Source: Candidatus Hermodarchaeota archaeon
Lineage (GTDB): Archaea > Asgardarchaeota > Hermodarchaeia > Hermodarchaeales > Hermodarchaeaceae
Reading direction: 5' to 3'
Assembly (NCBI GenBank): GCA_016839365.1
Contig: JAEOUH010000086.1
Location: 1 to 18,570, forward strand
DNA length: 18,570 bases
In this document: in pieces, positions 1,155-16,395 of the stretch
How the letters are laid out: each line of letters starts with the position of its first letter
Numbering within the stretch: position 1 is the first letter of the stretch
The notes under the pieces: generated by a model
Told to the model about the DNA's origin: nothing
The model's database searches: none
What the model saw: only the letters and a program-made list of their open reading frames with translations
Made by a program: the position numbers and the translations under genes

Positions 1155-2030
1155 ATGGTGAAATGCTCTATTCATCAGGATAGGGATGCCATTGCCATCT
1201 GTCAATCCTGTGGTAATGCGCTATGTTCCGACTGTCGAATCACCATTGCAGGGATTGCATATTGTCAACCATGTCTAGATGTGGGACGTATCCGTACACC
1301 GAAAGCAGTAGCTGATGAAGCAGTCGACCGCCTTCCCATACCGCTAGGTCATGTGATACCCACGAGTCGCAGAAATTTCAATATTGGAATCCTTGGATTA
1401 GCTTTTATGGCCATCTTCATCCATGCATTTTGGATGTTTTCGTATATCTATCCCCCATATTTTAGTTCCTTATATTATGCGACCTTGATTCCCCGGACCA
1501 TTGGAGTAATTCTGGTGGCCCTTGGAATCAGCCTCAGCGCGTTTGGATGGATGGAATTTAAAGGATATTTCAATTTCCGCTGGGCATTCTATATCGCGTT
1601 ATTCACTCTTACTGCCCCCTGGTTCGGAGTTTTAGCCGAACTTCTGGTCTATACTGGTCAGGTGATGATTGTTACTCCACCCTATGGCAGTATATCGCCG
1701 GGACCACTATGTGGACTGTATAATGGTTTGGTGTTTACAAGCAACGTATTTATTGGGGTTCTACTGATCTTGTGGTCCTTTGCACTCCTTTCTGTGAGAA
1801 GGCACTCTCGCTCTCAGGGTCTTATAATAGCCACAAGCATTTTCTACATTCTTATCGCACATATGACCCTTCTCATTATTCCCCTAATGGTGCAGTCAGT
1901 GTTCTACTATCCGTACCCAATGGTGCTTTATGGATACTACTTCCTAATTCCTGCTGTGCTAATAGAACTTGGTGTCATCCTGAACGCCATAATTTTCTAC
2001 CGTCTCGCAGCGAGTCTGAAACCCTACTAA
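1155..2030 (+). CDS. Membrane protein with an N-terminal B-box-like zinc finger and about 6 transmembrane helices
   Basis: N-terminus CSIH-x7-CQSC-x4-CSDC-x9-CQPC, followed by multiple long hydrophobic segments. GGAGTGGAG immediately before the ATG. Confidence 0.8.
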   Translation: MVKCSIHQDRDAIAICQSCGNALCSDCRITIAGIAYCQPCLDVGRIRTPKAVADEAVDRLPIPLGHVIPTSRRNFNIGILGLAFMAIFIHAFWMFSYIYPPYFSSLYYATLIPRTIGVILVALGISLSAFGWMEFKGYFNFRWAFYIALFTLTAPWFGVLAELLVYTGQVMIVTPPYGSISPGPLCGLYNGLVFTSNVFIGVLLILWSFALLSVRRHSRSQGLIIATSIFYILIAHMTLLIIPLMVQSVFYYPYPMVLYGYYFLIPAVLIELGVILNAIIFYRLAASLKPY

Positions 2031-3348: not shown

Positions 3349-3717
3349 ATGACCATGGCAAAGGACAAGAAGAAATCCAAAACTGAACCAACCGATTCCA
3401 TACCTGAACCAGAAGAAGCCAGTGTTCCAGAGGAAGAGGGATCCGGACCTCAGATGATGGACATAAGCGCATTACCCATCTGGCAACTCCTCCCCCTTTT
3501 CATGCGAATCCTTGATTCCGTGGCTTGGCAAAAAATGGGCCTCATCGTAAACCCGATGACACAGGAAATTGAAAAAGACCTCGTTCAAGCACGGACCGCC
3601 ATCGATTCGTACGAGGCACTTTTAGGGCAACTGAAAGAGCACCTCGAACCTGAAGCGAAAAAAGCCCTTGAATCCCGTTTGGCGGATTTGAAACTCAACT
3701 TCTCCACTCAAGCTTGA
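3349..3717 (+). CDS. DUF1844 family protein with an acidic/proline-rich N-terminal extension
   Basis: AWQKMGLIVNPMTQEIEKDLVQARTAID...L...LADLKLNF matches the DUF1844 pattern. Confidence 0.8.
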   Translation: MTMAKDKKKSKTEPTDSIPEPEEASVPEEEGSGPQMMDISALPIWQLLPLFMRILDSVAWQKMGLIVNPMTQEIEKDLVQARTAIDSYEALLGQLKEHLEPEAKKALESRLADLKLNFSTQA

Positions 3718-3794
3718 GTACATTTTGTGTAGTAAAACTGTTTAATAGGACCAAGCGGAAAGCTATGCTAACCGAGCAGGATGGTAGAAGTATA

Positions 3795-4859
3795 ATGAAG
3801 AAGGAAGGCGATGCCCATCGAATGCAGCTCCCTGGAGAAGTTGTTATTGGGTCAGGGGTAATTCACCAACTCGGTGAAGTGACTAAACGAGTGGTATCAA
3901 CGCGTCGCGCAATCCTCATCTCTGACAAAGAGGTCATGAAAATCGCAGGCAACGATGCCCTCAATTCGCTTGAAAAGGCGAAATTCAGCACCGAAATTGT
4001 CATCATCAAAAAAGCCACTGAACCCGAAGTTGAAAAATCCTGTGAGGAAATCCGAAATCAAAATGCAGGAGTCGTCGTCGCCGTCGGAGGAGGATCCGTC
4101 ATCGATACGGCCAAATTATGTTCCACCTACGAGAAACAACCCTTCATCAGTGTACCCACTTCAGCGGCACATGATGGAATCTCCAGCCCTCGAGCATCAA
4201 TCAAGAAAGATGGGACCTCAGTATCAGTAGAAGGTCAGTCTCCCATTGCAATAGTTGCTGATACACACATCATCGCTCAAGCTCCCTATCGATTTACAGC
4301 TGCTGGATGCGGTGATCTCATATCTAAAATCACTGCCGTGCGTGATTGGAAGCTAGCACATACCCTTGGATACGAATATTATGGAGAGTATTCTGCATCT
4401 CTTTCGTTGATGGGTGCTACCATTATCATGGAAAATGCCGCGATGATCAAAATAAATGACGAGCATAGTATACGACTCGTTGTCGAGGCATTGATTGCCA
4501 GTGGAATAGCCATGGGCATTGCAGGATCAAGTCGCCCCGCTAGCGGGGCGGAACATAAGTTCAGCCATGCCCTGGACCGTGTCGCCCCTAACCCCGCTTT
4601 TCATGGCGAACAATGTGGTGTAGGAACAATCATGATGGGCTATCTGCATGCCATTGATTGGGAAGAAATCCGTGTTGCTCTGGCGACCATTGGTGCACCA
4701 ACGACTGCAAAACAACTTGGTGTGGACCCAGAACACGTCATTGAAGCACTTAAAATCGCCCACACGATAAATCCCAAACGCTATACAATATTGGGTGAAA
4801 GAGGGCTCACTGAGAAGGCGGCTGAAAGGCTTGCTCGAATCACAGGGGTAATCACCTAA
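3795..4859 (+). CDS. egsA: sn-glycerol-1-phosphate dehydrogenase (NAD(P)+)
   Basis: GGGSVIDTAK, PTSAAHDGISSPRAS, AGCGD, GSSRPASGAEHKFSHALD, HGEQCGVG and RYTILG motifs. ATG 3795 gives 354 aa, the usual EgsA size; the ORF-track start at 3714 is probably over-extended. Confidence 0.96.
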   Translation: MKKEGDAHRMQLPGEVVIGSGVIHQLGEVTKRVVSTRRAILISDKEVMKIAGNDALNSLEKAKFSTEIVIIKKATEPEVEKSCEEIRNQNAGVVVAVGGGSVIDTAKLCSTYEKQPFISVPTSAAHDGISSPRASIKKDGTSVSVEGQSPIAIVADTHIIAQAPYRFTAAGCGDLISKITAVRDWKLAHTLGYEYYGEYSASLSLMGATIIMENAAMIKINDEHSIRLVVEALIASGIAMGIAGSSRPASGAEHKFSHALDRVAPNPAFHGEQCGVGTIMMGYLHAIDWEEIRVALATIGAPTTAKQLGVDPEHVIEALKIAHTINPKRYTILGERGLTEKAAERLARITGVIT

Positions 4860-4998
4860 TCTCCTTCAATTACGGCAGATTGTGAAAACCCATTATTTCT
4901 CAATGACGAAGAATATAAAAGGATAAATTGATATTCAAAAATTCAGTAATTTTATCTTCATACAGAATCACTAACCTTTGTTCCTTCTATCAGACCCG

Positions 4999-6693
4999 AT
5001 GACCCAAATAGATGTTGAAAATTATCAGGAAATTGTTAGAAATGGTATGGGGAGTCGTATCGACCAGTTTCTAACACGTGCCCTAAATTTTGGTTTTGTT
5101 GGCTCAATTCTCATCGCAAAGAAAGGAAAGATTCTCCTCCAGAAAGGTTACGGTCTTGCGAACACAGCCACCAATGTCCCCTTCACTCATAATACTATTG
5201 TTGATATAGGTTCACTCAGTAAGCAATTCACAGCTACAGCGATTCTACATTTAGAACAGGAAGGGAAATTGACTGTACAGGATCCCATCACTCGCTTTTT
5301 TGATGATGTACCAAAAGATAAGCAGGAAATAACCTTACACCATCTTCTTACTCATACATCTGGCCTACCTCTCAAACATGGGAGCGATTTCGAATATTAT
5401 GAAACAAGAAGTTTCATTCAAGATGTCGTTGCCCTTCCCTTAGCCTTCAAGCCAGGTACTGAATATAAATATAGCAATCCTGCCTTCGCCCTTCTAGCTA
5501 TCATCATCGAACAACTCACTAATCAAACACTCCAGACCTTCCTACAAACCACTTTCCTTGATCCTCTTGGATTAGAGAAAATTGGATGGTATGGAACGAA
5601 GAGCTGGTCAGAGGAAGAAGTGGCCCATGTATATATTGAAGGCATCGATGGCGGTTCCCCTCTGATTTGGCCAGGACCTTATCGACCATTGCTCGGAAAC
5701 GGGGGAATCTGCTGCCCTATTAATGAATTGTACCGCTGGATGCAGGCCATTAAAAATAATGTCTTTTTGACAAAAGAAAGTACAGCCAAACTATTCACAC
5801 CGTTTCTAGAAGATACATCTTATGGTTGGGATGTACTTCAGACCAAGTATGGACGCCGCATCTGGCATAATGGAGGCACCGATTCAGGAGCAAATTCAGA
5901 ACTCACTTGGTTTAGCGATTTAGATTTGCTAATAATTGCTTTTTCGAATAATATTCTCTTCGGAGAAGATGTAGGATATATGGCAATCTGGCCAATTCGT
6001 TCAATCCTGTTCAACAGCCCTTATACTCTCCCTCCCTGCTTACCCGAACCAAAACTGGATCCAAACAAAATACAACATCTTCTCGGGAACTATACTTTTC
6101 CTGAAGGTGGTGAGATAAACCTCACTGCCCAATCATATTTTTTGATTCTATCAGCCCGTGGACAACAAGCACTAGATTTTTGCCTTTTTCCAGAGAATGG
6201 ACCACCCGAGGAATATGCATTATATGATCAATCTTCCAATCTGCTTGTTAAGGGGCTTTTTGACGATGATTTTACTATTCTGGAAGAGTATGCTGCAAAT
6301 AAGACTCGAATTCCTCTTTTAGAGTCTTCACTTCAAAGATGGATTCGCATCTGTGAGGACCTCTATGGACCATATCAAATGCATCAAATCCTTGGAACAA
6401 CCCCCTTCAAAGAATTCTTTGATGCAACGTGGCTGCATTTTGACTTTAAAGAGGGACAAAATGGAATCGGTGTAGTTTGGAAAGACAAACAGCTCATCCG
6501 AATTACCGAAACACACTATCCTTATCCAGTCATTATTCCCTTTCTTCAACAAAGCGATACCCATTTCATTGGACATAATATCTTGTTTAATCAGACCTTG
6601 CAGCTTACCTGTGAAGACACAAAGACCCCAATTACAGGATTTCACCTACATAATGGTAACAATTCCTTCTTCGTCCCCAATACCTCTTATTGA
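4999..6693 (+). CDS. Serine hydrolase, beta-lactamase class C/AmpC-like fold, with a C-terminal extension
   Basis: Catalytic SxxK (GSLSKQFT), LLTHTSGL, FKPGTEYKYSN (YxN) and WHNGG. No obvious signal peptide. ATG 4999 is preferred over TTG 4978. Confidence 0.9.
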   Translation: MTQIDVENYQEIVRNGMGSRIDQFLTRALNFGFVGSILIAKKGKILLQKGYGLANTATNVPFTHNTIVDIGSLSKQFTATAILHLEQEGKLTVQDPITRFFDDVPKDKQEITLHHLLTHTSGLPLKHGSDFEYYETRSFIQDVVALPLAFKPGTEYKYSNPAFALLAIIIEQLTNQTLQTFLQTTFLDPLGLEKIGWYGTKSWSEEEVAHVYIEGIDGGSPLIWPGPYRPLLGNGGICCPINELYRWMQAIKNNVFLTKESTAKLFTPFLEDTSYGWDVLQTKYGRRIWHNGGTDSGANSELTWFSDLDLLIIAFSNNILFGEDVGYMAIWPIRSILFNSPYTLPPCLPEPKLDPNKIQHLLGNYTFPEGGEINLTAQSYFLILSARGQQALDFCLFPENGPPEEYALYDQSSNLLVKGLFDDDFTILEEYAANKTRIPLLESSLQRWIRICEDLYGPYQMHQILGTTPFKEFFDATWLHFDFKEGQNGIGVVWKDKQLIRITETHYPYPVIIPFLQQSDTHFIGHNILFNQTLQLTCEDTKTPITGFHLHNGNNSFFVPNTSY

Positions 6694-6770
6694 GTCCTAT
6701 GCAACAACAAGCTTTTGTACATAAACTGCAAGGGCGTACGTAACATTACAATCTCGGGGATTCAAGTAGT

Positions 6771-8375
6771 ATGTTTAAAACCAGTTCAGAATATTTCCCC
6801 AAAGACCGAAAGGTCCTCAAGGATATGCCTTGGGTCGGTAGAGTCTCCTTTGCTGATATGAAAGAAAAAGTCAAAGAAATCAGCACACGCCCCATCATGT
6901 GCAGTAATTGTGGAGCTGCCCTCACTAATCCGGATTTAATTCAAGAGAGTCCATCCAAGGGAAAAACCTTCAACTGCGAATTCTGCGGAACCCTAAATGT
7001 CATACCCCCAGAACTCATGCCAGGAACTGATCTCTCAGAATTCATGCTTGGGCAACTCACTACCGCAAAACCCATCACCGAAGATACCCTACTAGCAGTC
7101 ATTGATATTTCAGGATCAATGAGTGGTGGAAAATTAGCCGCTGTAAAAGAGTCACTTATCCGAACGGTGACTGATCTCAGTGTCAATGCCCCCGAGACCA
7201 CATTCGGTCTTCTAGCCTTCCATAGTGAAGTTTATTGTTACGATGAAAACATGAAGAAAATCTTCACTGTCTCTGGTGACATGCGTTACAGCGTTGAAGA
7301 AATCACTAAAGCGGTTGAATCGAAGCGAAAAGACGTCGAACTTAAACCCTTGAAGAAGACCAAGCAAAAATGGGTGTCCAACATCCAAAAGCTCCGCGAC
7401 ATTGACATGACTGCTCTTGGCCCTGCTATGGTCGCAGGATATGTTATCATGAAAGACCGTGGTGGACGTATTATACTCCTCACCGACGGCCTTGCCAACG
7501 AAGGTGTTGGAGCCCTTGAAGGATCTTCGACCACAGGAGCGCAGCTTTATGAAGACTTGGCGATTAAAGCAGCAAATGCAAGCATCATCATTGATGTGGT
7601 TGGTATCAAAGATCCTTCGGCTTTCATGGCCTTAGAAGCGTTAGCCGTAATGCCCATGCAAACAGGGGGCACCATGTACTATGCACAGGCTGATGAAATC
7701 GCTGATGCCATGAGCTCCTCATCGGGGGGCAAGATTGTTGCCCGTGGAGTGAAGATGCGTTTCATTGCCCCCAAAGATGTAGAACTGGCAGAAGTCAGCG
7801 GTTTAGGCGGTGCGGAAGCCGATGCCCTCCGGAAGGGAATTCGAATTGGCTCAGTGACCGAAGACCGCGAAGTCTACATACGGCTCAACCCTTCAACCAA
7901 GGTGAAAGAGAAAGAGGTGCCCATCCAAGTCCAGGTCTCCTATATGGATGAAGAAGGTAACCAACGCATGCGCGTGATGACCAAACGCGTCAAAGTCACC
8001 GACGATGCCAAACCAATCATCGAAACCCTCGACGTTGAACTCCCAGCAACCTATGCCGTGCAACGGGCAGGCGAAGAACAATATCGCGGTGAGGTGGCAA
8101 AGAGTAAGAAAATCCTTCAAGAGACCCAAAACGCCTATCGAGCGGTCCAAAATCAAGCTCCCGCTGGAATAGCGAAAGCCATCAGAAAGGCCGACAAAGT
8201 CCTCGATGATGAAATCGAGGAGGCCGAAAAAGTCGCTGAACGACAGAAAGAAGAGATGAGTAAACGCTCTGTCGTTGGCGTGGCCCAGGCTGCGCCTATT
8301 GCGGATGAAGATGCGGCGATGAGTATGCAGCGGGCACGTAAGTCAAGTAAAGAGCTCTTTGATGACGAAGAGTAA
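6771..8375 (+). CDS. Sec23/Sec24-like protein: zinc finger + VWA trunk + beta-sandwich + helical C-terminus
   Basis: Zinc finger PIMCSNCGAAL...FNCEFCGTLN (C44, C47, C69, C72). VWA motifs IDISGSM, TALGPA, GGRIILLTDGLANEGVGAL, LYEDLAIKAANASIIIDV and QTGG. Beta-sandwich motifs VKMRFIAPKDVELAEVSG and IQVQVSYMDEEGNQRMRVMTKRVKVTDD, similar to Sec24 FQxALLYTxxxGERRIRVHT. Confidence 0.82.
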   Translation: MFKTSSEYFPKDRKVLKDMPWVGRVSFADMKEKVKEISTRPIMCSNCGAALTNPDLIQESPSKGKTFNCEFCGTLNVIPPELMPGTDLSEFMLGQLTTAKPITEDTLLAVIDISGSMSGGKLAAVKESLIRTVTDLSVNAPETTFGLLAFHSEVYCYDENMKKIFTVSGDMRYSVEEITKAVESKRKDVELKPLKKTKQKWVSNIQKLRDIDMTALGPAMVAGYVIMKDRGGRIILLTDGLANEGVGALEGSSTTGAQLYEDLAIKAANASIIIDVVGIKDPSAFMALEALAVMPMQTGGTMYYAQADEIADAMSSSSGGKIVARGVKMRFIAPKDVELAEVSGLGGAEADALRKGIRIGSVTEDREVYIRLNPSTKVKEKEVPIQVQVSYMDEEGNQRMRVMTKRVKVTDDAKPIIETLDVELPATYAVQRAGEEQYRGEVAKSKKILQETQNAYRAVQNQAPAGIAKAIRKADKVLDDEIEEAEKVAERQKEEMSKRSVVGVAQAAPIADEDAAMSMQRARKSSKELFDDEE

Positions 8376-8394: not shown

Positions 8395-8424
8395 ATAGGG
8401 GTGTATTGCCCCTATATTCTTTTT
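8395..8424 (+). terminator. Hairpin plus T-rich tract after the Sec23/24-like gene
   Basis: ATAGGGG-(tgtattg)-CCCCTAT inverted repeat followed by ATTCTTTTT, about 20 nt past the stop codon. Confidence 0.55.
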
Positions 8425-8554
8425 AAGAGGATCACTTCAATTCCAAAAGCTTCGACGAGTTTATGACTGACTAAAGCGAAAAGATGATATCTATAGAAAA
8501 TATAGAGTTTATGGTTATTAAGCCCAATTTAACCTCAGCGGCGGTATCTGAACC

Positions 8555-9571
8555 ATGATTGCCCCAATCATTTGGATCGCTCTATTACTCATTCTCGTGT
8601 TTATTGTCGCCGTGGCGATTGGGGCAAGTGATGAGACAATGGCAACCGTTGTGGGAGGTAAAGTTCTCAAATTGAATGCGGCGATTTTTCTGGGAATGGG
8701 TCTCCAAATCATTGGGGCTCAATTGCTCGGAGCCCGAGTTTCTGGGACCATTGGACAAGATATGGTTTTAACCCCCTTACCCTTTGATATTATCCTGATT
8801 ATAGTCATAGCGATGACAATATGGGCTCTAGTGGCATCTCTTCGCGGTTATCCGATCTCAACGACTCATTCGATTGTTGGCTGCATACTGGGCGTGGGAC
8901 TCCTAATTCAATTTACTACCATGGGTCCAATAATCAATTGGTTTACAATAATTCAAATTGTAATTGGTTGGATTTTAAGCATCATTTTTGGCTTGGCAAT
9001 TGCTTTATTCGTTCAACTAGTTTTGAGAAAAACCATTTTACCCCGCACTTCGAGTCTGGATCAGATTGAGAGATTCGAACAAATTTTTGGATGGCTGTTA
9101 TTGATTGTAGTAATTGTATCTGCGTTGAGTCGTGGAGGTAATGATGTTTCAAAGGCAGTGGGAATCTTGACTATGATTTTTCCTGACCCGACATTCTGGG
9201 GATGGTTTTTGTTTCTGGGTGGAATTGGTATGGCTGTAGGATTATTTTTGATTGGTCGACGAGTTGTAGCTACCGTTGGAATGGAGATAACAGAGCTCCG
9301 CCCAAGTACAAGTTTTTCTGCAGAACTCGCAGTAGCTTCAGTGCTTTTAGTCGGAACTATTTTGGGGATACCTCTCTCTGGAACACATGTTCTTGTAGCA
9401 GCGGTGGTTGGAGTTGGTCTTGCAAATAGAAGCCGTGTTAGAGGGCCAGGACTAAATAAAATCTTAATGGCATCGTTTCTAACCATTCCCCTTTCTGCAC
9501 TTTTAGCGATTGGATTATTGTGGCTTTATCTGGCTATTCGACCCTTTTTCATCCTGTTTGTTGGAATCTAG
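8555..9571 (+). CDS. Inorganic phosphate transporter, PiT/SLC20 (PHO4) family
   Basis: Internal repeat with PiT signatures GASDETMATVVG and RGGNDVSKAVG, plus PISTTHSIVG, GRRVVATVG and GIPLSGTH. Highly hydrophobic. Confidence 0.9.
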   Translation: MIAPIIWIALLLILVFIVAVAIGASDETMATVVGGKVLKLNAAIFLGMGLQIIGAQLLGARVSGTIGQDMVLTPLPFDIILIIVIAMTIWALVASLRGYPISTTHSIVGCILGVGLLIQFTTMGPIINWFTIIQIVIGWILSIIFGLAIALFVQLVLRKTILPRTSSLDQIERFEQIFGWLLLIVVIVSALSRGGNDVSKAVGILTMIFPDPTFWGWFLFLGGIGMAVGLFLIGRRVVATVGMEITELRPSTSFSAELAVASVLLVGTILGIPLSGTHVLVAAVVGVGLANRSRVRGPGLNKILMASFLTIPLSALLAIGLLWLYLAIRPFFILFVGI

Positions 9572-10440: not shown

Positions 10441-11571
10441 TTAATCCGCTTCAGCCTTGCCTTCAAGTAAACTTCTAATACGGTCAGCGAAAGGGTCGCC
10501 TTCAGCTTTGAGAATTATCACATCTCTATAGGAGATAAATAAATCTCTTTTATCTTTGACTTTAATTTCAGAATCAGCGGCGAGTTCAGCTTTAACAGGG
10601 TGGGTTCCTCCAACATCTGCGTAAACTTGATAGTAGCGCCCAGTGAAAACGAGGCTCTCAATTGTACTTGATAATTTGTTGAAATCCGCTTTAGGTTCTC
10701 GTACTCGAAAGTCTTCAGGTCGAATTGCAGCAAATGCTTCCTCACCCTTAGAAAAGGTTAGATCGTTGCGGGTCGTTCGCCCATGCAATTGTTGCCCCCA
10801 GGACGTTTCGATGGTAATTTTTTTTCCGTTAGCACTTGTTATGGTTCCGTGAAGAAAGGTGCAAGAGCCAATGAAGTCTGCGACGAAGAGATTTTGTGGC
10901 TCCTCATAGATATCTTTAGGCGAATCTACTTGCCTTATATGACCAAGTTCCATAACAGCAATACGATCAGAGATGCTGAGCGCTTCCTCTTGATCATGCG
11001 TTACATAAATTGTGGTTATCCCGAATTCCTTTTGGATCCGCTTGATTTCATGCCGCATCTCCACTCGAAGCTTTGCATCTAAATTGCTGAGTGGCTCGTC
11101 AAATAATAGGACCCGCGGTTCGATGACCAACGCGCGAGCAAGTGCAACACGTTGTTGCTGCCCTCCACTTAACTGGAAGGGAGTACGATTTTCCATTCCA
11201 CCGAGTCGAACTAATTCGAGGATATCTAGGACTTTCTTACGTATCTCATCTTTGGGGATTTTCCGGATTTTAAGTCCAAAAGCCACATTATCGAACACCT
11301 TCATATGTGGCCAGATGGCGTAGTTTTGAAAAACCATGCCCGTGTTCCGATTATTAGGTGGCACTCGGGTCATATCGGTTTCACCAAAAAAGACTTGCCC
11401 TTCCTCAGGTGTATAGAAACCAGCAACACATCGCAGGATAGTTGTTTTTCCACAACCAGAGGGACCCAATAAGGTGAACAGTTCTCCATCGTTTATGTGA
11501 AGATCAATATGATCGCAGGCAACGACTTCTCCAAATCGCTTGGTTAATTCCTTTAAATCGATTGTTACCAT
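10441..11571 (-). CDS. ABC transporter ATP-binding protein (FbpC/PotA class) with a C-terminal TOBE domain
   Basis: Walker A GPSGCGKT, Q-loop VFQNYA, signature LSGGQQQR, Walker B LLFDEP, H-loop VTHDQEEA, and RPED. Confidence 0.96.
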   Translation of the reverse strand: MVTIDLKELTKRFGEVVACDHIDLHINDGELFTLLGPSGCGKTTILRCVAGFYTPEEGQVFFGETDMTRVPPNNRNTGMVFQNYAIWPHMKVFDNVAFGLKIRKIPKDEIRKKVLDILELVRLGGMENRTPFQLSGGQQQRVALARALVIEPRVLLFDEPLSNLDAKLRVEMRHEIKRIQKEFGITTIYVTHDQEEALSISDRIAVMELGHIRQVDSPKDIYEEPQNLFVADFIGSCTFLHGTITSANGKKITIETSWGQQLHGRTTRNDLTFSKGEEAFAAIRPEDFRVREPKADFNKLSSTIESLVFTGRYYQVYADVGGTHPVKAELAADSEIKVKDKRDLFISYRDVIILKAEGDPFADRIRSLLEGKAEAD

Positions 11572-11586
11572 TTTTTTCCCGTTCCT

Positions 11587-13509
11587 TTATAATCCCACCA
11601 TTGATTCCGTTCGGCTCTTCAATACTACATTAACAATGGTAATTATGATTATTTGAATTATCATAAGCAAGAGTCCTAAAACAGCAGCATGATGTGATCC
11701 TGCTGCAACTTGATATAGGATGTCTGCCATTTTCCATGTAAGGGGAGCTTGGCTCGGATTAACTCCACCTAAAACGAGACTAACACTTACTTCTGACATG
11801 CAATATACAAAGGACATCATCGCCCCAGAGAGGACGGAGACGGCTACTAAGGGAATTACTATGCCTGCAAATACTCGGGCTCGACTGGCTCCAAGGTTTT
11901 CTGCGGCTTCTTCGTATTCAACATTCGTTTGTTGAAGACCCGCAAAAGTTGAACGTACAGTGAATGGGAATTTCCTAATTGTGAACGCTAGTATTAGCAA
12001 TGGCATGGCTGTTATTAATGGATTGAGAATTGAACTAGCGAAAAGGGGAATTCGTACAAAGAAAAGGAAATACCCCATGGCAATGACGATTCCAGGTAAT
12101 GCTATAGGAATTGTAACCAGAAGGTCTAATCCGCCGATACCGGGAAGATTCTTTCTTGCAACAATATATGCTGCACCTGTTGCCAATACCACAATGAGAA
12201 TGATAGCGACTGTACTATAAAAGAGGCTGTTGAAAATCGATTGGAGTACTAGAGGGTCTGTAAATACTTGAAAGAAGTTAATCACCGTGGGGAAGTTAAC
12301 TGGAATGACAGTAGTACCCCATTCAGTGGAAAATGCCAGGAAAAGGATTCCTAATGGTGTGAGTAGTGCAAAAAAGAGCACCACCCCAATAAACCCATAT
12401 ATCGCGATATACTGCCACCATTTTGGTTTGTTCAGCCTTGGATTCCATGTGCCCCCTTTACTCATCATGGCATAATGTCTAAGAGACATATACCTTCGGA
12501 TTAATAGGAATCCAATCATTGCAATTAACAACAAGATAACGCTTAATGCTGGCGCAATGGGATTTATGGCTCCCGTCGGAGCAAAGATTAACGAATAGAC
12601 TTGATAGGTGATCGTCCGGCGAACGACTGGGTCGGATTCAAAAACAATGAGAGTGCCCAGATCTTCAACACTGAGAATAAATGTGAGTATTGCCCCTGCT
12701 TCAATTCCTGGCAAGGCTAAGGGAAGGGTGATCTTCCTGAAAAGTCCAAATCCCTTTGCACCCATATTCTCTCCTTGTTCTTCTAATGAAGGGTCTATAG
12801 CCAGGAATGCGGCGTAGGTTGAAAGATAAACCAATGAGAAGAAGTGCAGCGATTGAACAAGAATTACCGCAGCTAATCCTTCGAAAATTACTCGGAATGG
12901 GAGAATTCTAAGGATGTCGTAGAATAACAGGTTGAGCATCCCAAATTCCCCGAATATTTTTTGGATGGCAATTGCGCTAACAAAAGGCGTGGAAAGAATG
13001 GGGACGAGAATGAGAATACGCAGAATGGATTTGCCATGAAAGTCATATCGTGCCATGAAAAAGGCAAGTGTAACCCCGATTAATGTGGAGATGAGAGTTG
13101 TCGAGAGACCCACATATATGGAATTGATAATCGCCCCACAATCGACACCTCGAATGTAAAGATAATCACCTACGATTTGAATTGGTACCCCTGTACATCC
13201 ATTAACAGGCCAAAATCGTGGATCAGTAAAGATGATTCGGAACCATATAAGTGAAAAAACACCGTTTGCGGTAAACGCGGATCCTATCACGGCTAGCAAA
13301 GGGAGAACCATGAAAAATATGAATACTAGGATTACCGCAGCTAATTGAATGGATGAAAAGACACCCATCTGTGAGCGGAACTGATGGAGAAGCTCTTTAT
13401 AGTATTCGAAGTGGAAGAATTTTCGCCCAGATAGTATCCAATCTCTCGTACGATTAGAAAATCCAGAAAATCTGAGTTTGAATCCTTCTTTCGACAGAAT
13501 ACTTGCCAT
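11587..13509 (-). CDS. ABC transporter permease, fused two-domain FbpB/ThiP type
   Basis: Two EAA loops (LEEQGENMGA and YEEAAENLGAS) and many TM segments. Start is ATG 13509 or TTG 13512. Confidence 0.93.
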   Translation of the reverse strand: MASILSKEGFKLRFSGFSNRTRDWILSGRKFFHFEYYKELLHQFRSQMGVFSSIQLAAVILVFIFFMVLPLLAVIGSAFTANGVFSLIWFRIIFTDPRFWPVNGCTGVPIQIVGDYLYIRGVDCGAIINSIYVGLSTTLISTLIGVTLAFFMARYDFHGKSILRILILVPILSTPFVSAIAIQKIFGEFGMLNLLFYDILRILPFRVIFEGLAAVILVQSLHFFSLVYLSTYAAFLAIDPSLEEQGENMGAKGFGLFRKITLPLALPGIEAGAILTFILSVEDLGTLIVFESDPVVRRTITYQVYSLIFAPTGAINPIAPALSVILLLIAMIGFLLIRRYMSLRHYAMMSKGGTWNPRLNKPKWWQYIAIYGFIGVVLFFALLTPLGILFLAFSTEWGTTVIPVNFPTVINFFQVFTDPLVLQSIFNSLFYSTVAIILIVVLATGAAYIVARKNLPGIGGLDLLVTIPIALPGIVIAMGYFLFFVRIPLFASSILNPLITAMPLLILAFTIRKFPFTVRSTFAGLQQTNVEYEEAAENLGASRARVFAGIVIPLVAVSVLSGAMMSFVYCMSEVSVSLVLGGVNPSQAPLTWKMADILYQVAAGSHHAAVLGLLLMIIQIIIITIVNVVLKSRTESMVGL

Positions 13510-13659
13510 CAACAGACCTTCGAGTGAAGATTTGTTTTTCGGGTAATTCCGAATAGTGATGTCACATCAATAGCGAATATGAATTATAAAAAAGTAATAT
13601 ACCGTGCCCTTCAGTTCAGGTTTGAGTAAGAATCTGTTTGCAAATTAAATTACGTTGTT

Positions 13660-13699
13660 AAATAATAAAAGAAAGGGCGTGAGGTAATAGTTACCTCAC
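13660..13699 (-). terminator. Intra-operon hairpin plus U-rich tract between the binding-protein and permease genes
   Basis: Perfect 9-bp inverted repeat GTGAGGTAA-tag-TTACCTCAC (13679-13699), followed on the minus strand by CTTTCTTTTATTATTT. Confidence 0.6.
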
Positions 13700-13716
13700 T
13701 CAGAGCACCCAATGAA

Positions 13717-15150
13717 TTAGCCAGGGACAGCAATCTCTACAGTGTTATACTGGGCAATTGCGGCGGAAGTCCAGAGGCTTTTGATGCTTTCTCTGAACAC
13801 ATCATCCCCGCGAATTAACATGTTGATGCTTTGTGCATACGCCTCTGTGAATTTCTCAGCTGTTAGGGTGTAGGGATCAGTGATTGTTACTGTTGCTCCA
13901 AGTTGAGCCGCCCAAGTATCGAACTGGGCCTGTCTGCCCACTGGATCAACAAGGTACCAATTGACAAGTTTGCCCCAGGCACTTCGAAGTGCACTATGGG
14001 CATTAGTTATTACGGATTCAAAGTAGTGTATAAAGGACCATTCGTACGAAAGAACAAGGTTGTCATCGAAGGGGATGCCAATATTCTCGATGGTAGCATT
14101 GTAGAAGGTGTAGAGATCGTCTCGAGTTTCACCGATGGGTGTATCAAATGCTTCTTCCATCACTGGCATTCGGTTAATTGTTGTACGTAACCATTGACTT
14201 TGTCCTTCAGGAGATAAGACAAAATCAATAAAAGCTTCAGCGGCTTCACGATGCTGGCAAGTGACAGGAATGGCAATTGGATCACCATTAACGATCGATC
14301 CGTTCTGTGGGACAACATATTGACAGAAACTGTACTTGTACATCGATGTATATCCATAGAAGTCAATGGTCATTCCAACTGCTACTTCGCCTGTTTCCAC
14401 TGCAGTTTGGGTTTGAACGGACCCACCATAAATCTTGGAATTTCCTCCCATCCGGACAATGGTATCCCATCCAAGATCCCATCCAAATTTCTGAGCAATA
14501 ATTTCGTAGATTCGTGTATTACTAGTCGTTGCAGGTGCATTGCCCATCGCAATTGTTGCGGTGGGGTGATAAAAACCGGGGCTTGTTAGGTTTTCCCAGG
14601 CTGAAGGCCAAGGCAGTGATTTTGCAGCCCATGTTTGGTTATTCACCGTAAAGCCAAAGGAACTAATGGCAGCAGCGCACCATAGAATATCACCGTCTGT
14701 ATCGTTGCGTTTCATGTCTGCGCCAGCGATTTCATCCGGAACTCGAGCAATGACATCTTCCATGTAAGTGCCATTCATCTTTACAAGAAGTCCAGCTGAT
14801 ATAAGCTCATCAAAGAGAGTGGGCCCCCCACCCCATGCTACATCAGGCAGTCCTGCTGGGTTCAAAATAACGTCTTGCCATTGCGGCGCTAGTGGTGAAA
14901 TAAAATCTAACGCTACGACATTTGCATCCGCTGCTAAATCAGAGGCTAGAAAGGAGTCTCTAAAGACGTTCCAGATGGCTGTGTCATGCCGGGTAATGAT
15001 CTTTAGTGTTATTCCCTGTTCAGGTGGTGGACCAGGTGGATGGGTAAGGATCCACCATCCCGCAACGGCACCACTTGCACCAACGATTATGACAATTGCC
15101 ACAATTGCATAGAGTTTTTTACGAGATGAAGTTTGAGCTACATCCGACAT
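13717..15150 (-). CDS. ABC transporter substrate-binding protein (Fe3+/thiamine-like type 2 PBP, archaeal subgroup), N-terminal membrane anchor
   Basis: KIITRHD, PDVAWGGGPTLFD, AAISSFGFTVN, STRIYE-like SNTRIYE, IDFYGY, NGDPIAI and AEAFIDFVLSPEGQ motifs. RKK plus a hydrophobic helix and Pro linker at the N-terminus. ATG 15150 has GGAGTG upstream (track start 15168). Confidence 0.92.
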   Translation of the reverse strand: MSDVAQTSSRKKLYAIVAIVIIVGASGAVAGWWILTHPPGPPPEQGITLKIITRHDTAIWNVFRDSFLASDLAADANVVALDFISPLAPQWQDVILNPAGLPDVAWGGGPTLFDELISAGLLVKMNGTYMEDVIARVPDEIAGADMKRNDTDGDILWCAAAISSFGFTVNNQTWAAKSLPWPSAWENLTSPGFYHPTATIAMGNAPATTSNTRIYEIIAQKFGWDLGWDTIVRMGGNSKIYGGSVQTQTAVETGEVAVGMTIDFYGYTSMYKYSFCQYVVPQNGSIVNGDPIAIPVTCQHREAAEAFIDFVLSPEGQSQWLRTTINRMPVMEEAFDTPIGETRDDLYTFYNATIENIGIPFDDNLVLSYEWSFIHYFESVITNAHSALRSAWGKLVNWYLVDPVGRQAQFDTWAAQLGATVTITDPYTLTAEKFTEAYAQSINMLIRGDDVFRESIKSLWTSAAIAQYNTVEIAVPG

Positions 15151-15200
15151 TATAACATAACACTCCAATAGGAATCTGTTAGGGGATTGGCATCAAGGTA

Positions 15201-15217
15201 TTTTTATATCTTTTATC
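15201..15217 (-). promoter_or_regulatory. Putative BRE/TATA promoter for the ABC operon
   Basis: Minus strand reads GATAAAAG-ATATAAAAA about 50 nt upstream of the ATG at 15150. Confidence 0.5.
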
Positions 15218-15263
15218 TCTCGCAAAACACCAACATATCACAATTTTAGAATCATAATTTAGA

Positions 15264-15279
15264 GTAAAGGCTTTATAGA
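15264..15279 (+). promoter_or_regulatory. Putative BRE/TATA promoter for the surface protein gene
   Basis: GTAAAGGC-TTTATAGA about 40 nt upstream of ATG 15316; GGAGA just before the start codon. Confidence 0.55.
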
Positions 15280-15315
15280 ACCTAGGAAGCACGGTTTAAG
15301 GAATCGGAGATTAAA

Positions 15316-16395
15316 ATGTCTCTGAGGTCAATTAAAATGCTGAAAAATAAGAAAGCAATTCTGATGCTATCGGTACTAGTTCTCACCCTTTCTATCGGTT
15401 TCTTCCCATTGAACCACTCAACTCGCGCTCAGAGTCTTTTTGAAGGCAAAGTCGTTGCATTCTATAATGTATACACTGCTTTTTCCCAATCGGCCCCTTC
15501 AGTTGCTGAATTTATGGACTGGTGGATAAGCAATGGTGGAACCGCCAACAATATCACTGATTTAACTGCAGACACGCTAGCAAATACTCATGCTTTGATT
15601 CTCAATTGTCCCGATGCAGACCAAGATGAATCGCACTCTATTACCAACTTTACCATGGCACAAGCTCAGGCTGTTAGAGACTGGTTCCTTGACACAAGTA
15701 TAGGTCATAAGTTCCTGTGGTCAAGTTCTGACTCATCATATACATACGCAGGTTACACGGATGCGTATCGATCTAACAATGCTTCGATGATTCTCGAGGT
15801 TCTCGGTTCAGTATTACGATACGAACCATCTTCTGTTGAAGACCCCGATTACAACACTGGTGGAGGCGCATATCGACCAATACTGAACACAACAGGAACT
15901 GATCCCATAATTGCCTCGTGCGTTGAAAACGTCACTGCTGTCTTAGCTCACAGCCCAACACTCCTTTACGGCTTAGATGGAACTACACCGGTTGCGCTTG
16001 AAACTACGACCCTACCAAACGTGTATCCTATCCTAATGACAGGTGCAGCTGGAATAATTAACGATCCAACGCTGTTAGATCCAATGCAAGCTCACACTAA
16101 TGGTCAAGAAGGCCATTTTGTGATGGTTGCAGGTGAACTTGGCATAGGTGGAACAACCCACAAGTTGGTTGCTTCTAGCTGCGCACCTATTGGTGGTTAC
16201 AATCCAATGTGGTTCGACGAACACAGGGGTTCTATACTGAATGGCTCCTTATTCATCAAACAAACTGTCACCTGGGGCATGACTCCACCTTTAATCCCAC
16301 CACCGATTCCTGGATTTCCGTTTGAAGCCATTGCTCTTGGTCTTCTTGCCACTCTCGGAATAGGACTTGTACTTCGGAACCGAAGAAGGAAGTAA
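15316..16395 (+). CDS. Secreted cell-surface protein with a probable GATase1-like/GIFT (GldG/IFT52/DUF4350-like) domain and a PGF/Loki-CTERM-like anchor
   Basis: Signal peptide (KNKK, hydrophobic core, TRA-Q). Core LTADTLANTHALIL..P....FTMAQAQAVRDWF....HKFLWSSSDS. C-terminus PPLIPPP-IPGFP-FEAIALGLLATLGIGLVL-RNRRRK. Seven N-x-S/T sequons. Confidence 0.75.
   Translation: MSLRSIKMLKNKKAILMLSVLVLTLSIGFFPLNHSTRAQSLFEGKVVAFYNVYTAFSQSAPSVAEFMDWWISNGGTANNITDLTADTLANTHALILNCPDADQDESHSITNFTMAQAQAVRDWFLDTSIGHKFLWSSSDSSYTYAGYTDAYRSNNASMILEVLGSVLRYEPSSVEDPDYNTGGGAYRPILNTTGTDPIIASCVENVTAVLAHSPTLLYGLDGTTPVALETTTLPNVYPILMTGAAGIINDPTLLDPMQAHTNGQEGHFVMVAGELGIGGTTHKLVASSCAPIGGYNPMWFDEHRGSILNGSLFIKQTVTWGMTPPLIPPPIPGFPFEAIALGLLATLGIGLVLRNRRRK

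Follow-up and report, generated by a model that had tools for sequence, protein, structure and literature searches.

Genes resembling Sec23/24 have often been put forward as evidence for parts of a vesicle coat in Asgard archaea. The gene described here is of this type; it lies in an 18,570-nucleotide stretch of DNA from a Candidatus Hermodarchaeota archaeon (contig JAEOUH010000086.1 of assembly GCA_016839365.1; hereafter the window) and encodes a protein of 534 amino acids (aa) with a zinc finger and a von Willebrand factor A (vWA) domain. Comparison with its relatives shows that this protein has the fold of the coat proteins Sec23 and Sec24, that it retains a working-type metal site, and that its closest eukaryotic relatives by sequence lie outside the coat.

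Asgard Sec23-like proteins have already been published, as the preliminary description of the window, made from its letters alone, had noted for Thorarchaeota. They were reported to have all Sec23 domains minus the gelsolin domain and to lack the residues that contact Sar1, and are seen by those authors as precursors of an inner coat (Nat Commun 2025; PMC11914678); their MIDAS metal site (metal-ion-dependent adhesion site) goes unmentioned in that paper. In the eukaryotic coat protein complex II (COPII), which acts on membranes together with Sar1 and a Sec13/31 outer coat, the corresponding proteins are the paralogues Sec23 and Sec24, which form a heterodimer. Sec23 owes to its gelsolin domain the catalytic residue for Sar1 GTP hydrolysis and some of its contact surface with Sar1 (PMC11914678). 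In Sulfolobus, ArnB and ArnE (PDB 8S05, 5A8J; PMC12852372) combine a MIDAS-bearing vWA domain with a split beta-sandwich and a C-terminal helical domain, the zinc finger and an FHA domain being carried by a separate protein, ArnA, in a phosphorylation-driven system where the ArnA finger docks on the ArnB sandwich. The eukaryotic cpRAS-VWA or ZnF-vWA family was described by Elias & Novotny (2008; PMC2430557) and has been little studied.

Domain architecture and predicted structure

Pfam profiles matched the protein in the order zinc finger, trunk, beta-sandwich. Sec23_trunk was found over residues 110-306 (E 2.5e-12; 47.4 bits against a cut-off of 27), with further matches in the trunk to VWA (E 1.1e-7) and VWA_2 (about 1e-7). 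Sec23_BS (E 2e-5; 25.5 bits; residues 328-410, profile positions 5-86 of 86) and zf-Sec23_Sec24 (E 0.005; 17.2 bits; residues 41-81, positions 1-38 of 39) scored below their cut-offs of 33.5 and 25, yet were matched over nearly their full length. Sec23_helical had no match in this gene or anywhere in the genome, Pfam's Gelsolin had none in the protein, whose chain ends after the helical domain, and NCBIfam has no family for it.

An AlphaFold2 model computed from a 46-sequence family alignment was confident, with a mean predicted local distance difference test score of 84.7 and a predicted template modelling (TM) score of 0.84. Searched against the PDB with Foldseek, the model found yeast Sec23 first (E 8.8e-29; TM 0.70 by query) and then solely Sec23 and Sec24 chains until ArnB (3.5e-17) and an ArnB paralogue (5.7e-15); Sec24 is also the top PDB match both by sequence and by profile. 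The VIA-align alignments to Sec23/24 begin at residue 1 of the archaeal model and cover 489 of its 534 residues for Sec24A (Z 28.3), and reach from residue 16 to residue 623 of the approximately 765 of Sec23A (Z 27.6), so that the structural match stops at the start of the Sec23 gelsolin domain. Matches of this strength are far above the level that chance would give. Further down that list were ArnB (Z 26.2 over 358 residues), and below it ITIH (312 residues) and other vWA proteins.

The model thus predicts four domains in the order and spatial arrangement of Sec23/24, without the gelsolin domain, in a protein some 230 or more residues shorter than its COPII counterparts. Longer relatives, of at least 964 aa, were searched for, and none came up. 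The helical domain is assigned from the predicted structure and not from a Pfam profile, and the N-terminal strands (residues 1-30) are probably part of a split beta-sandwich, by analogy with Sec23/24 and ArnB. The preliminary description had proposed this zinc-finger, trunk, beta-sandwich and helical order from motifs, and both the profiles and the model bear it out, the helical part through structure alone. The motifs it had pointed to are present, namely the zinc finger C44-x2-C47 ... C69-x-F-C72-G-x2-N76, the vWA trunk and the strand Y391-x-D393-x2-G396-x2-R399-x-R401-V-x-T404, which is followed by helices; Sec23/24 entries, and not the YfbK- or ITIH-like proteins that would have spoken for an ordinary vWA protein, lead the profile and fold lists.

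The gene is under strong purifying selection, with ratios of nonsynonymous to synonymous substitution rates of 0.030-0.033 against three orthologues, and its homologues share its start methionine in the family alignment. The protein has an isoelectric point of 5.3, ends in ...KELFDDEE, and contains no hydrophobic segment, signal peptide or transmembrane segment; being acidic and without a hydrophobic segment, it is predicted to be soluble and cytosolic.

The metal site and the eukaryotic relatives

The residues expected of a MIDAS site (D112, S114, G115, S116, T214 and D239) are invariant in the 46 Asgard sequences, and the same residues occur in 51-52 of 52 eukaryotic ZnF-vWA relatives. In human Sec24A the profile alignment shows a degenerate site, in which the loop reads DvShn, the threonine is replaced by serine and the aspartate by glutamine. 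Judged from these alignments, the archaeal site is complete and invariant, unlike that of human Sec24A. The four zinc-finger cysteines are likewise invariant in the 46 Asgard and 52 eukaryotic proteins.

A profile of the Asgard family was searched against 1.84 billion representative proteins and the best 150 matches were listed. The closest (approximately 40) were taken as representatives of the Asgard family, the sources of about ten having been checked. Immediately below them came proteins that scored 170-224 bits, with E values from 1e-45 to 1e-61, and every one of these lower matches with a named source was eukaryotic: sea urchin, choanoflagellate, Soliformovum and Entamoeba, the sea urchin protein being named "circularly permutated Ras protein 1-like". 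In these relatives a zinc finger is combined with Sec23_trunk and Sec23_BS. Many of them begin with a Ras domain in two separate parts, and some are extended by a RING domain or by Kelch and ankyrin repeats. Aligned with hhalign, the Asgard and eukaryotic ZnF-vWA families matched with a probability of 100% (E 1.8e-76; 479 columns). Against COPII the Asgard profile reached 50 bits on Sec24A (E 1.6e-12) and fell short of E 0.001 on Sec23, while the eukaryotic ZnF-vWA profile scored 67 bits on Sec24A and 36 on Sec23. In the ESM Atlas the ZnF-vWA and cpRas clusters rank next after the protein's own cluster. Among the 150 matches listed, the closest eukaryotic family by sequence is therefore ZnF-vWA/cpRAS, and not COPII.

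The two families have in common the four-cysteine finger, the MIDAS motifs DxSGSM...T-x-LGP...TDG-x-x-N-x-G and the residues Q386, Y391, G396 and R401 of the beta-sandwich. A model of the sea urchin module predicts the same fold without gelsolin domain; its best alignments reach no further than Sec23A residues 594-610, short of the gelsolin domain. The eukaryotic proteins have tens of extra residues inserted right behind the MIDAS loop; the archaeal protein has neither this insertion nor the Ras, RING, Kelch or ankyrin additions.

An unrooted tree of 83 sequences, drawn from the Asgard and the eukaryotic ZnF-vWA families, resolved the two sets as clean groups separated by a branch with 100% support in the Shimodaira-Hasegawa-like approximate likelihood ratio test. 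Because the groups are clean, there is no sign of recent transfer in either direction, and on this tree the archaeal protein belongs to a sister group of eukaryotic ZnF-vWA and is not a member of that family. Of the candidate outgroup matches, those in genome G013 are pieces of a single broken gene spread over two small contigs, and those in G011 cover the MIDAS loop only. No paper linking the Asgard proteins to cpRAS turned up in the searchable literature.

Also found among the ZnF-vWA relatives was a metagenomic protein of 1089 aa (P0203) in which Kelch and ankyrin repeats follow the Sec23/24-like module, an architecture of which we know no description.

Predicted function and competing explanations

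The explanation that we favour, at a probability of roughly 0.78, is that the protein is a metal-dependent adaptor or effector of the Sec23/24 superfamily, plausibly linked to small GTPases, without the GTPase-activating protein (GAP) activity of Sec23 and with a coat function unsupported. Its trunk would coordinate a divalent cation in the MIDAS site and thereby capture an acidic side chain on a partner protein, with the zinc finger, sandwich and helical domain forming a rigid platform around it. A small GTPase module is a plausible partner, since each of the superfamily's three branches has a tie to GTPases: Sar1 is bound by Sec23, the eukaryotic relatives are fused to a circularly permuted Ras domain (cpRas), and the genes of Thorarchaeota and some other Asgard archaea adjoin GTPase genes. 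Sec23-type GAP action is ruled out by the absence of the gelsolin domain with its catalytic residue.

The gene neighbourhoods behind the last of these ties are uneven. At all 18 Thorarchaeota loci the Sec23-like gene sits between a divergent Roadblock-like gene and a directly downstream row of Roadblock, Roadblock, MglA-like GTPase and Roadblock genes. Searches with family hidden Markov models found GTPase neighbours in few lineages besides Thorarchaeota. In two genera of another Asgard family (loci L051, L052 and L054, about 6680-7850, and L061, 7195-7866) a same-strand small GTPase gene sits directly upstream of the Sec23-like gene; the GTPase is Rab-like (174 aa) in one genus and a different one of 223 aa in the other.

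Several observations count against the adaptor explanation. The genome from which the window comes holds the same Roadblock/GTPase cluster with its flanks on another contig (C15), without the Sec23-like gene, so the linkage in Thorarchaeota may be a lineage-specific insertion. By the same family models most loci outside Thorarchaeota have no GTPase neighbour, and as Asgard genomes are rich in GTPases (27 small-GTPase matches in this one), some such neighbours would arise by chance. That one eukaryotic family has the fusion is no proof of an interaction in archaea, and in a yeast assay three Asgard Sec23-like proteins bound an Asgard Arf only weakly and independently of nucleotide state (PMC11914678). 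Both the partner and the metal binding are, moreover, inferred. A Roadblock/GTPase linkage as a general rule was rejected, given its presence at 18 of 18 Thorarchaeota loci, in few other lineages, and in this genome as a cluster without the gene. Taken from the neighbourhood, then, the evidence for a GTPase connection is suggestive but weak, given the number of GTPases in these genomes.

The C15 cluster (locus L073:3026-9989) consists of a divergent Roadblock-like gene on the minus strand followed by Roadblock, Roadblock, MglA-like GTPase and Roadblock genes, the GTPase (C15:24170-24727) being 60% identical to its Thorarchaeota counterpart. It is flanked by an open reading frame (ORF) of 1187 aa on the minus strand, SMC-sized and assumed to be SMC from the Thorarchaeota locus, and a gene of 257 aa occupies the position of the Thorarchaeota prenyltransferase gene.

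The main competitor makes the protein a primitive inner coat of COPII type from which Sec23/24 descend directly; an Arf- or Sar-like GTPase would recruit it to membranes, where it would polymerise, select cargo or bend the membrane. PMC11914678 sees the Asgard proteins as inner-coat precursors, and this reading agrees with the presence of four of Sec23's five domains, arranged as they are there, and with the many small GTPases and the separate gelsolin-domain genes in the genome. The COPII proteins differ from the archaeal one, however, in their gelsolin domain, in their pairing as Sec23 and Sec24, for which a single-copy gene offers no equivalent, and in their metal site, which is intact here; in sequence the protein is much closer to the non-COPII ZnF-vWA/cpRAS family than to Sec24A or Sec23. 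No Sec31-like gene was seen in the genome, where the sole WD40 gene found encodes a generic propeller of approximately 308 aa, away from this locus, and in yeast an Asgard Arf was bound weakly, whatever its nucleotide state. We consider a primitive coat improbable. Of the "proto-coat/adaptor" proposed in the preliminary description, the Sec23/24 homology holds, while the proto-coat half is not shown, given the missing gelsolin domain, the single copy and the intact MIDAS site. Its statement that no Sar1/Arf GTPase or Sec13/31-like gene lies in the window agrees with the finding of no GTPase, WD40 or solenoid gene among the ORFs of 80 aa or more there, and the genome-wide search that it suggested returned small GTPases and the one generic propeller, but no paralogue.

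Two small-GTPase genes, of which one is MglA-like, are found no more than 10 kb from the WD40 propeller gene (C24:43447-54163).

It is less probable still, and in our view very unlikely, that the protein is a regulator of ArnB type, in which Ser/Thr phosphorylation would switch a vWA, beta-sandwich and helical core that governs how another cell structure is expressed, the finger here being fused to that core and not sitting on a partner. The structural match to ArnB is nearly as good as that to Sec23/24 (358 residues by VIA-align, the Foldseek value given above, and a profile E of 1.3e-5), and ArnE follows at Z 23.3; ArnB, too, retains its MIDAS site, and the ArnA finger docks on the ArnB sandwich (PMC12852372). 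Sequence similarity is nevertheless far below that to Sec24 or the ZnF-vWA family, and the ORF and Pfam scan of the window found no kinase or phosphatase gene. An ArnA-like partner was sought and rejected, no FHA-domain gene being found in the genome (84% complete) by a search whose control did match Sulfolobus.

That this is a generic prokaryotic vWA protein of YfbK or ITIH type, sharing only the common vWA fold with Sec23/24, would fit the VWA and VWA_2 matches, the lower places that ITIH and a vWA protein from an actinobacterium take in the structure lists and the bare label "VWA domain-containing protein" that NCBI gives to homologues, but it is excluded, to within a negligible chance, by full-length profile and structure matches, in that Sec23_trunk outscores VWA, the finger and sandwich profiles are matched along their length, Sec23/24 chains align over approximately 490 residues against 312 for ITIH, and signal peptide and transmembrane segment are both absent.

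Returning to the metal-dependent adaptor or effector, a further and more tentative step can be considered, against which we would set the odds: the Asgard protein and ZnF-vWA/cpRAS could be the slow-evolving direct continuation of an ancestral MIDAS-dependent, small-GTPase module, with COPII Sec23/24 a derived offshoot that gained the gelsolin domain and lost the metal site. If this were true, reports of Asgard "Sec23/24 homologues" would bear on a GTPase-linked adaptor function reaching from Asgard archaea to animals and amoebae, and not on a primitive coat. The gene itself is nothing new in kind; it adds a well-supported Sec23/24-like member from a further lineage. The retention of a working-type metal site and the greater likeness to a non-coat eukaryotic family advise caution over the proto-coat reading, and a MIDAS-bearing ZnF-vWA adaptor related to cpRAS-type proteins and COPII is the better description, a point that no paper found in the searchable literature makes.

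Distribution in Asgard archaea

A homologue search returned 187 proteins at E 0.001 or better. Those with a named source came from Asgard metagenome-assembled genomes; one Thorarchaeota protein is annotated "SEC24 family transport protein", the NCBI label being otherwise the bare one mentioned above. Identity is at least 65% within the protein's own group and then drops across a gap to approximately 39% (Thorarchaeota, Freyarchaeota, Lokiarchaeia), with full-length values of 36-41% for Thorarchaeota and Freyarchaeota members. The gene is present in 147 of 400 sampled Asgard genomes, patchily across families and usually in one copy; the genome of the window has one at E 0.01 or better, in an assembly that is 84% complete.

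The 534-aa protein is a further member of the published Asgard Sec23-like family. It shares with the described members the four domains, the lack of a gelsolin domain and Sec23/24 as best PDB fold match, and in the tree it belongs to the Asgard group, where it forms part of a supported clade of 9 sequences that includes Thorarchaeota ones. It differs in forming a separate sub-lineage, with identities of at least 65% confined to its own family, and in its setting, since Thorarchaeota members head the Roadblock/GTPase cluster, whereas the gene in the window lies near egsA and an acyl-CoA dehydrogenase gene. For one member of the Asgard family (P0136) the deposited genome bin is named "Candidatus Eremiobacterota bacterium", probably through a binning error, transfer to bacteria being less likely.

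Transcription unit and genomic context

The coordinates of the gene, its domains and its flanking signals are given in Table 1.

Table 1. Features of the Sec23/24-like gene and its flanks; nucleotide positions are those of the window
Feature	Position	Strand	Basis or remark
Conserved upstream element ACAACAAGCTTTTGTAC	6704..6720	+	~50-65 nt before ATG; 5-sequence alignment
Ribosome-binding-site-like element CGGGGATTC	6755..6763	+	8-16 nt before ATG
Coding sequence, Sec23/24-like ZnF-vWA protein, 534 aa	6771..8375	+	ATG start, TAA stop
N-terminal beta-strands, aa 1-30	6771..6860	+	Model strands E2-4, E8-10, E21-26
Sec23/24-type zinc finger, aa 41-81, Cys 44, 47, 69, 72	6891..7013	+	Pfam zf-Sec23_Sec24
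vWA "trunk" domain, aa 103-320	7077..7730	+	Pfam Sec23_trunk, VWA; alternating strand/helix in model
MIDAS motif D112-I-S114-G-S116	7104..7118	+	Family invariance
Remaining MIDAS residues T214, D239	7410-7412, 7485-7487	+	Family invariance
Beta-sandwich, aa 322-410, with Q386/Y391/G396/R401 strand	7734..8000	+	Pfam Sec23_BS, model strands
Helical domain and acidic tail, aa 413-530	8007..8360	+	Model helices H413-530
Terminator-like hairpin, 9-bp stem, then ATTCTTTTTA	8395..8425	+	T-run after hairpin

Both upstream elements lie within the 77-nt spacer that precedes the coding sequence. The more distant one is kept in five orthologous upstream regions from two genera despite a differing upstream gene, and is a candidate promoter or regulator site; in the nearer one, GGGGA is invariant across the five-sequence alignment. 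The terminator-like hairpin starts twenty bases past the stop codon. Because of the conserved upstream element, the hairpin, and flanks that vary among relatives, the gene is probably its own, monocistronic transcription unit, in agreement with what the preliminary description had proposed.

In relatives the gene order is NAD kinase, DUF1844, egsA, Sec23-like gene, PiT, PhoU_div, acyl-CoA dehydrogenase and OPT. This shared order supports the archaeal (Asgard) setting that had been read from the sequence and rules out a chimeric contig, a concern raised at the same time. In the sister genus the acyl-CoA dehydrogenase gene alone of these neighbours is kept at the locus, and egsA is absent.

A functional coupling to egsA, and so to lipid backbone synthesis, was considered and rejected: the adjacency occurs only within the gene's own genus and is interrupted in the window and in its closest relative (G099), the upstream element stays with the Sec23-like gene, and the sister genus has no egsA at the locus. 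The adjacency is a shallow, interruptible synteny, and the conserved upstream blocks, the hairpin and the variable flanks together indicate a stable, separate unit.

The interruption is a 571-aa beta-lactamase-family (PF00144) gene at 4978-6693, between egsA and the Sec23-like gene, which occurs at this locus in the window and G099 only and is absent from three other relatives. Further upstream, the order NAD kinase, DUF1844, egsA is kept in all same-genus relatives, and the last 4 nt of the DUF1844 gene (3349-3717) overlap egsA (3714-4859) at its predicted TTG start. Downstream, an ATP-binding cassette (ABC) transporter block of ATPase, fused permease and solute-binding protein, with a 359-aa ORF that had no Pfam match, occupies positions 10441-16395 and is an insertion between PhoU_div and the acyl-CoA dehydrogenase gene compared with other relatives. 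G099 has the ABC block and lacks the PiT gene (window 8555-9571). Positions 10441-16395 have the look of an accessory-gene hot spot.

B-box zinc fingers are mainly eukaryotic. At window positions 1155-2030 lies an ORF of 291 aa, otherwise unmatched, whose N-terminus resembles the B-box zinc finger PF00643 with an E of 7.8e-5, just under the cut-off.

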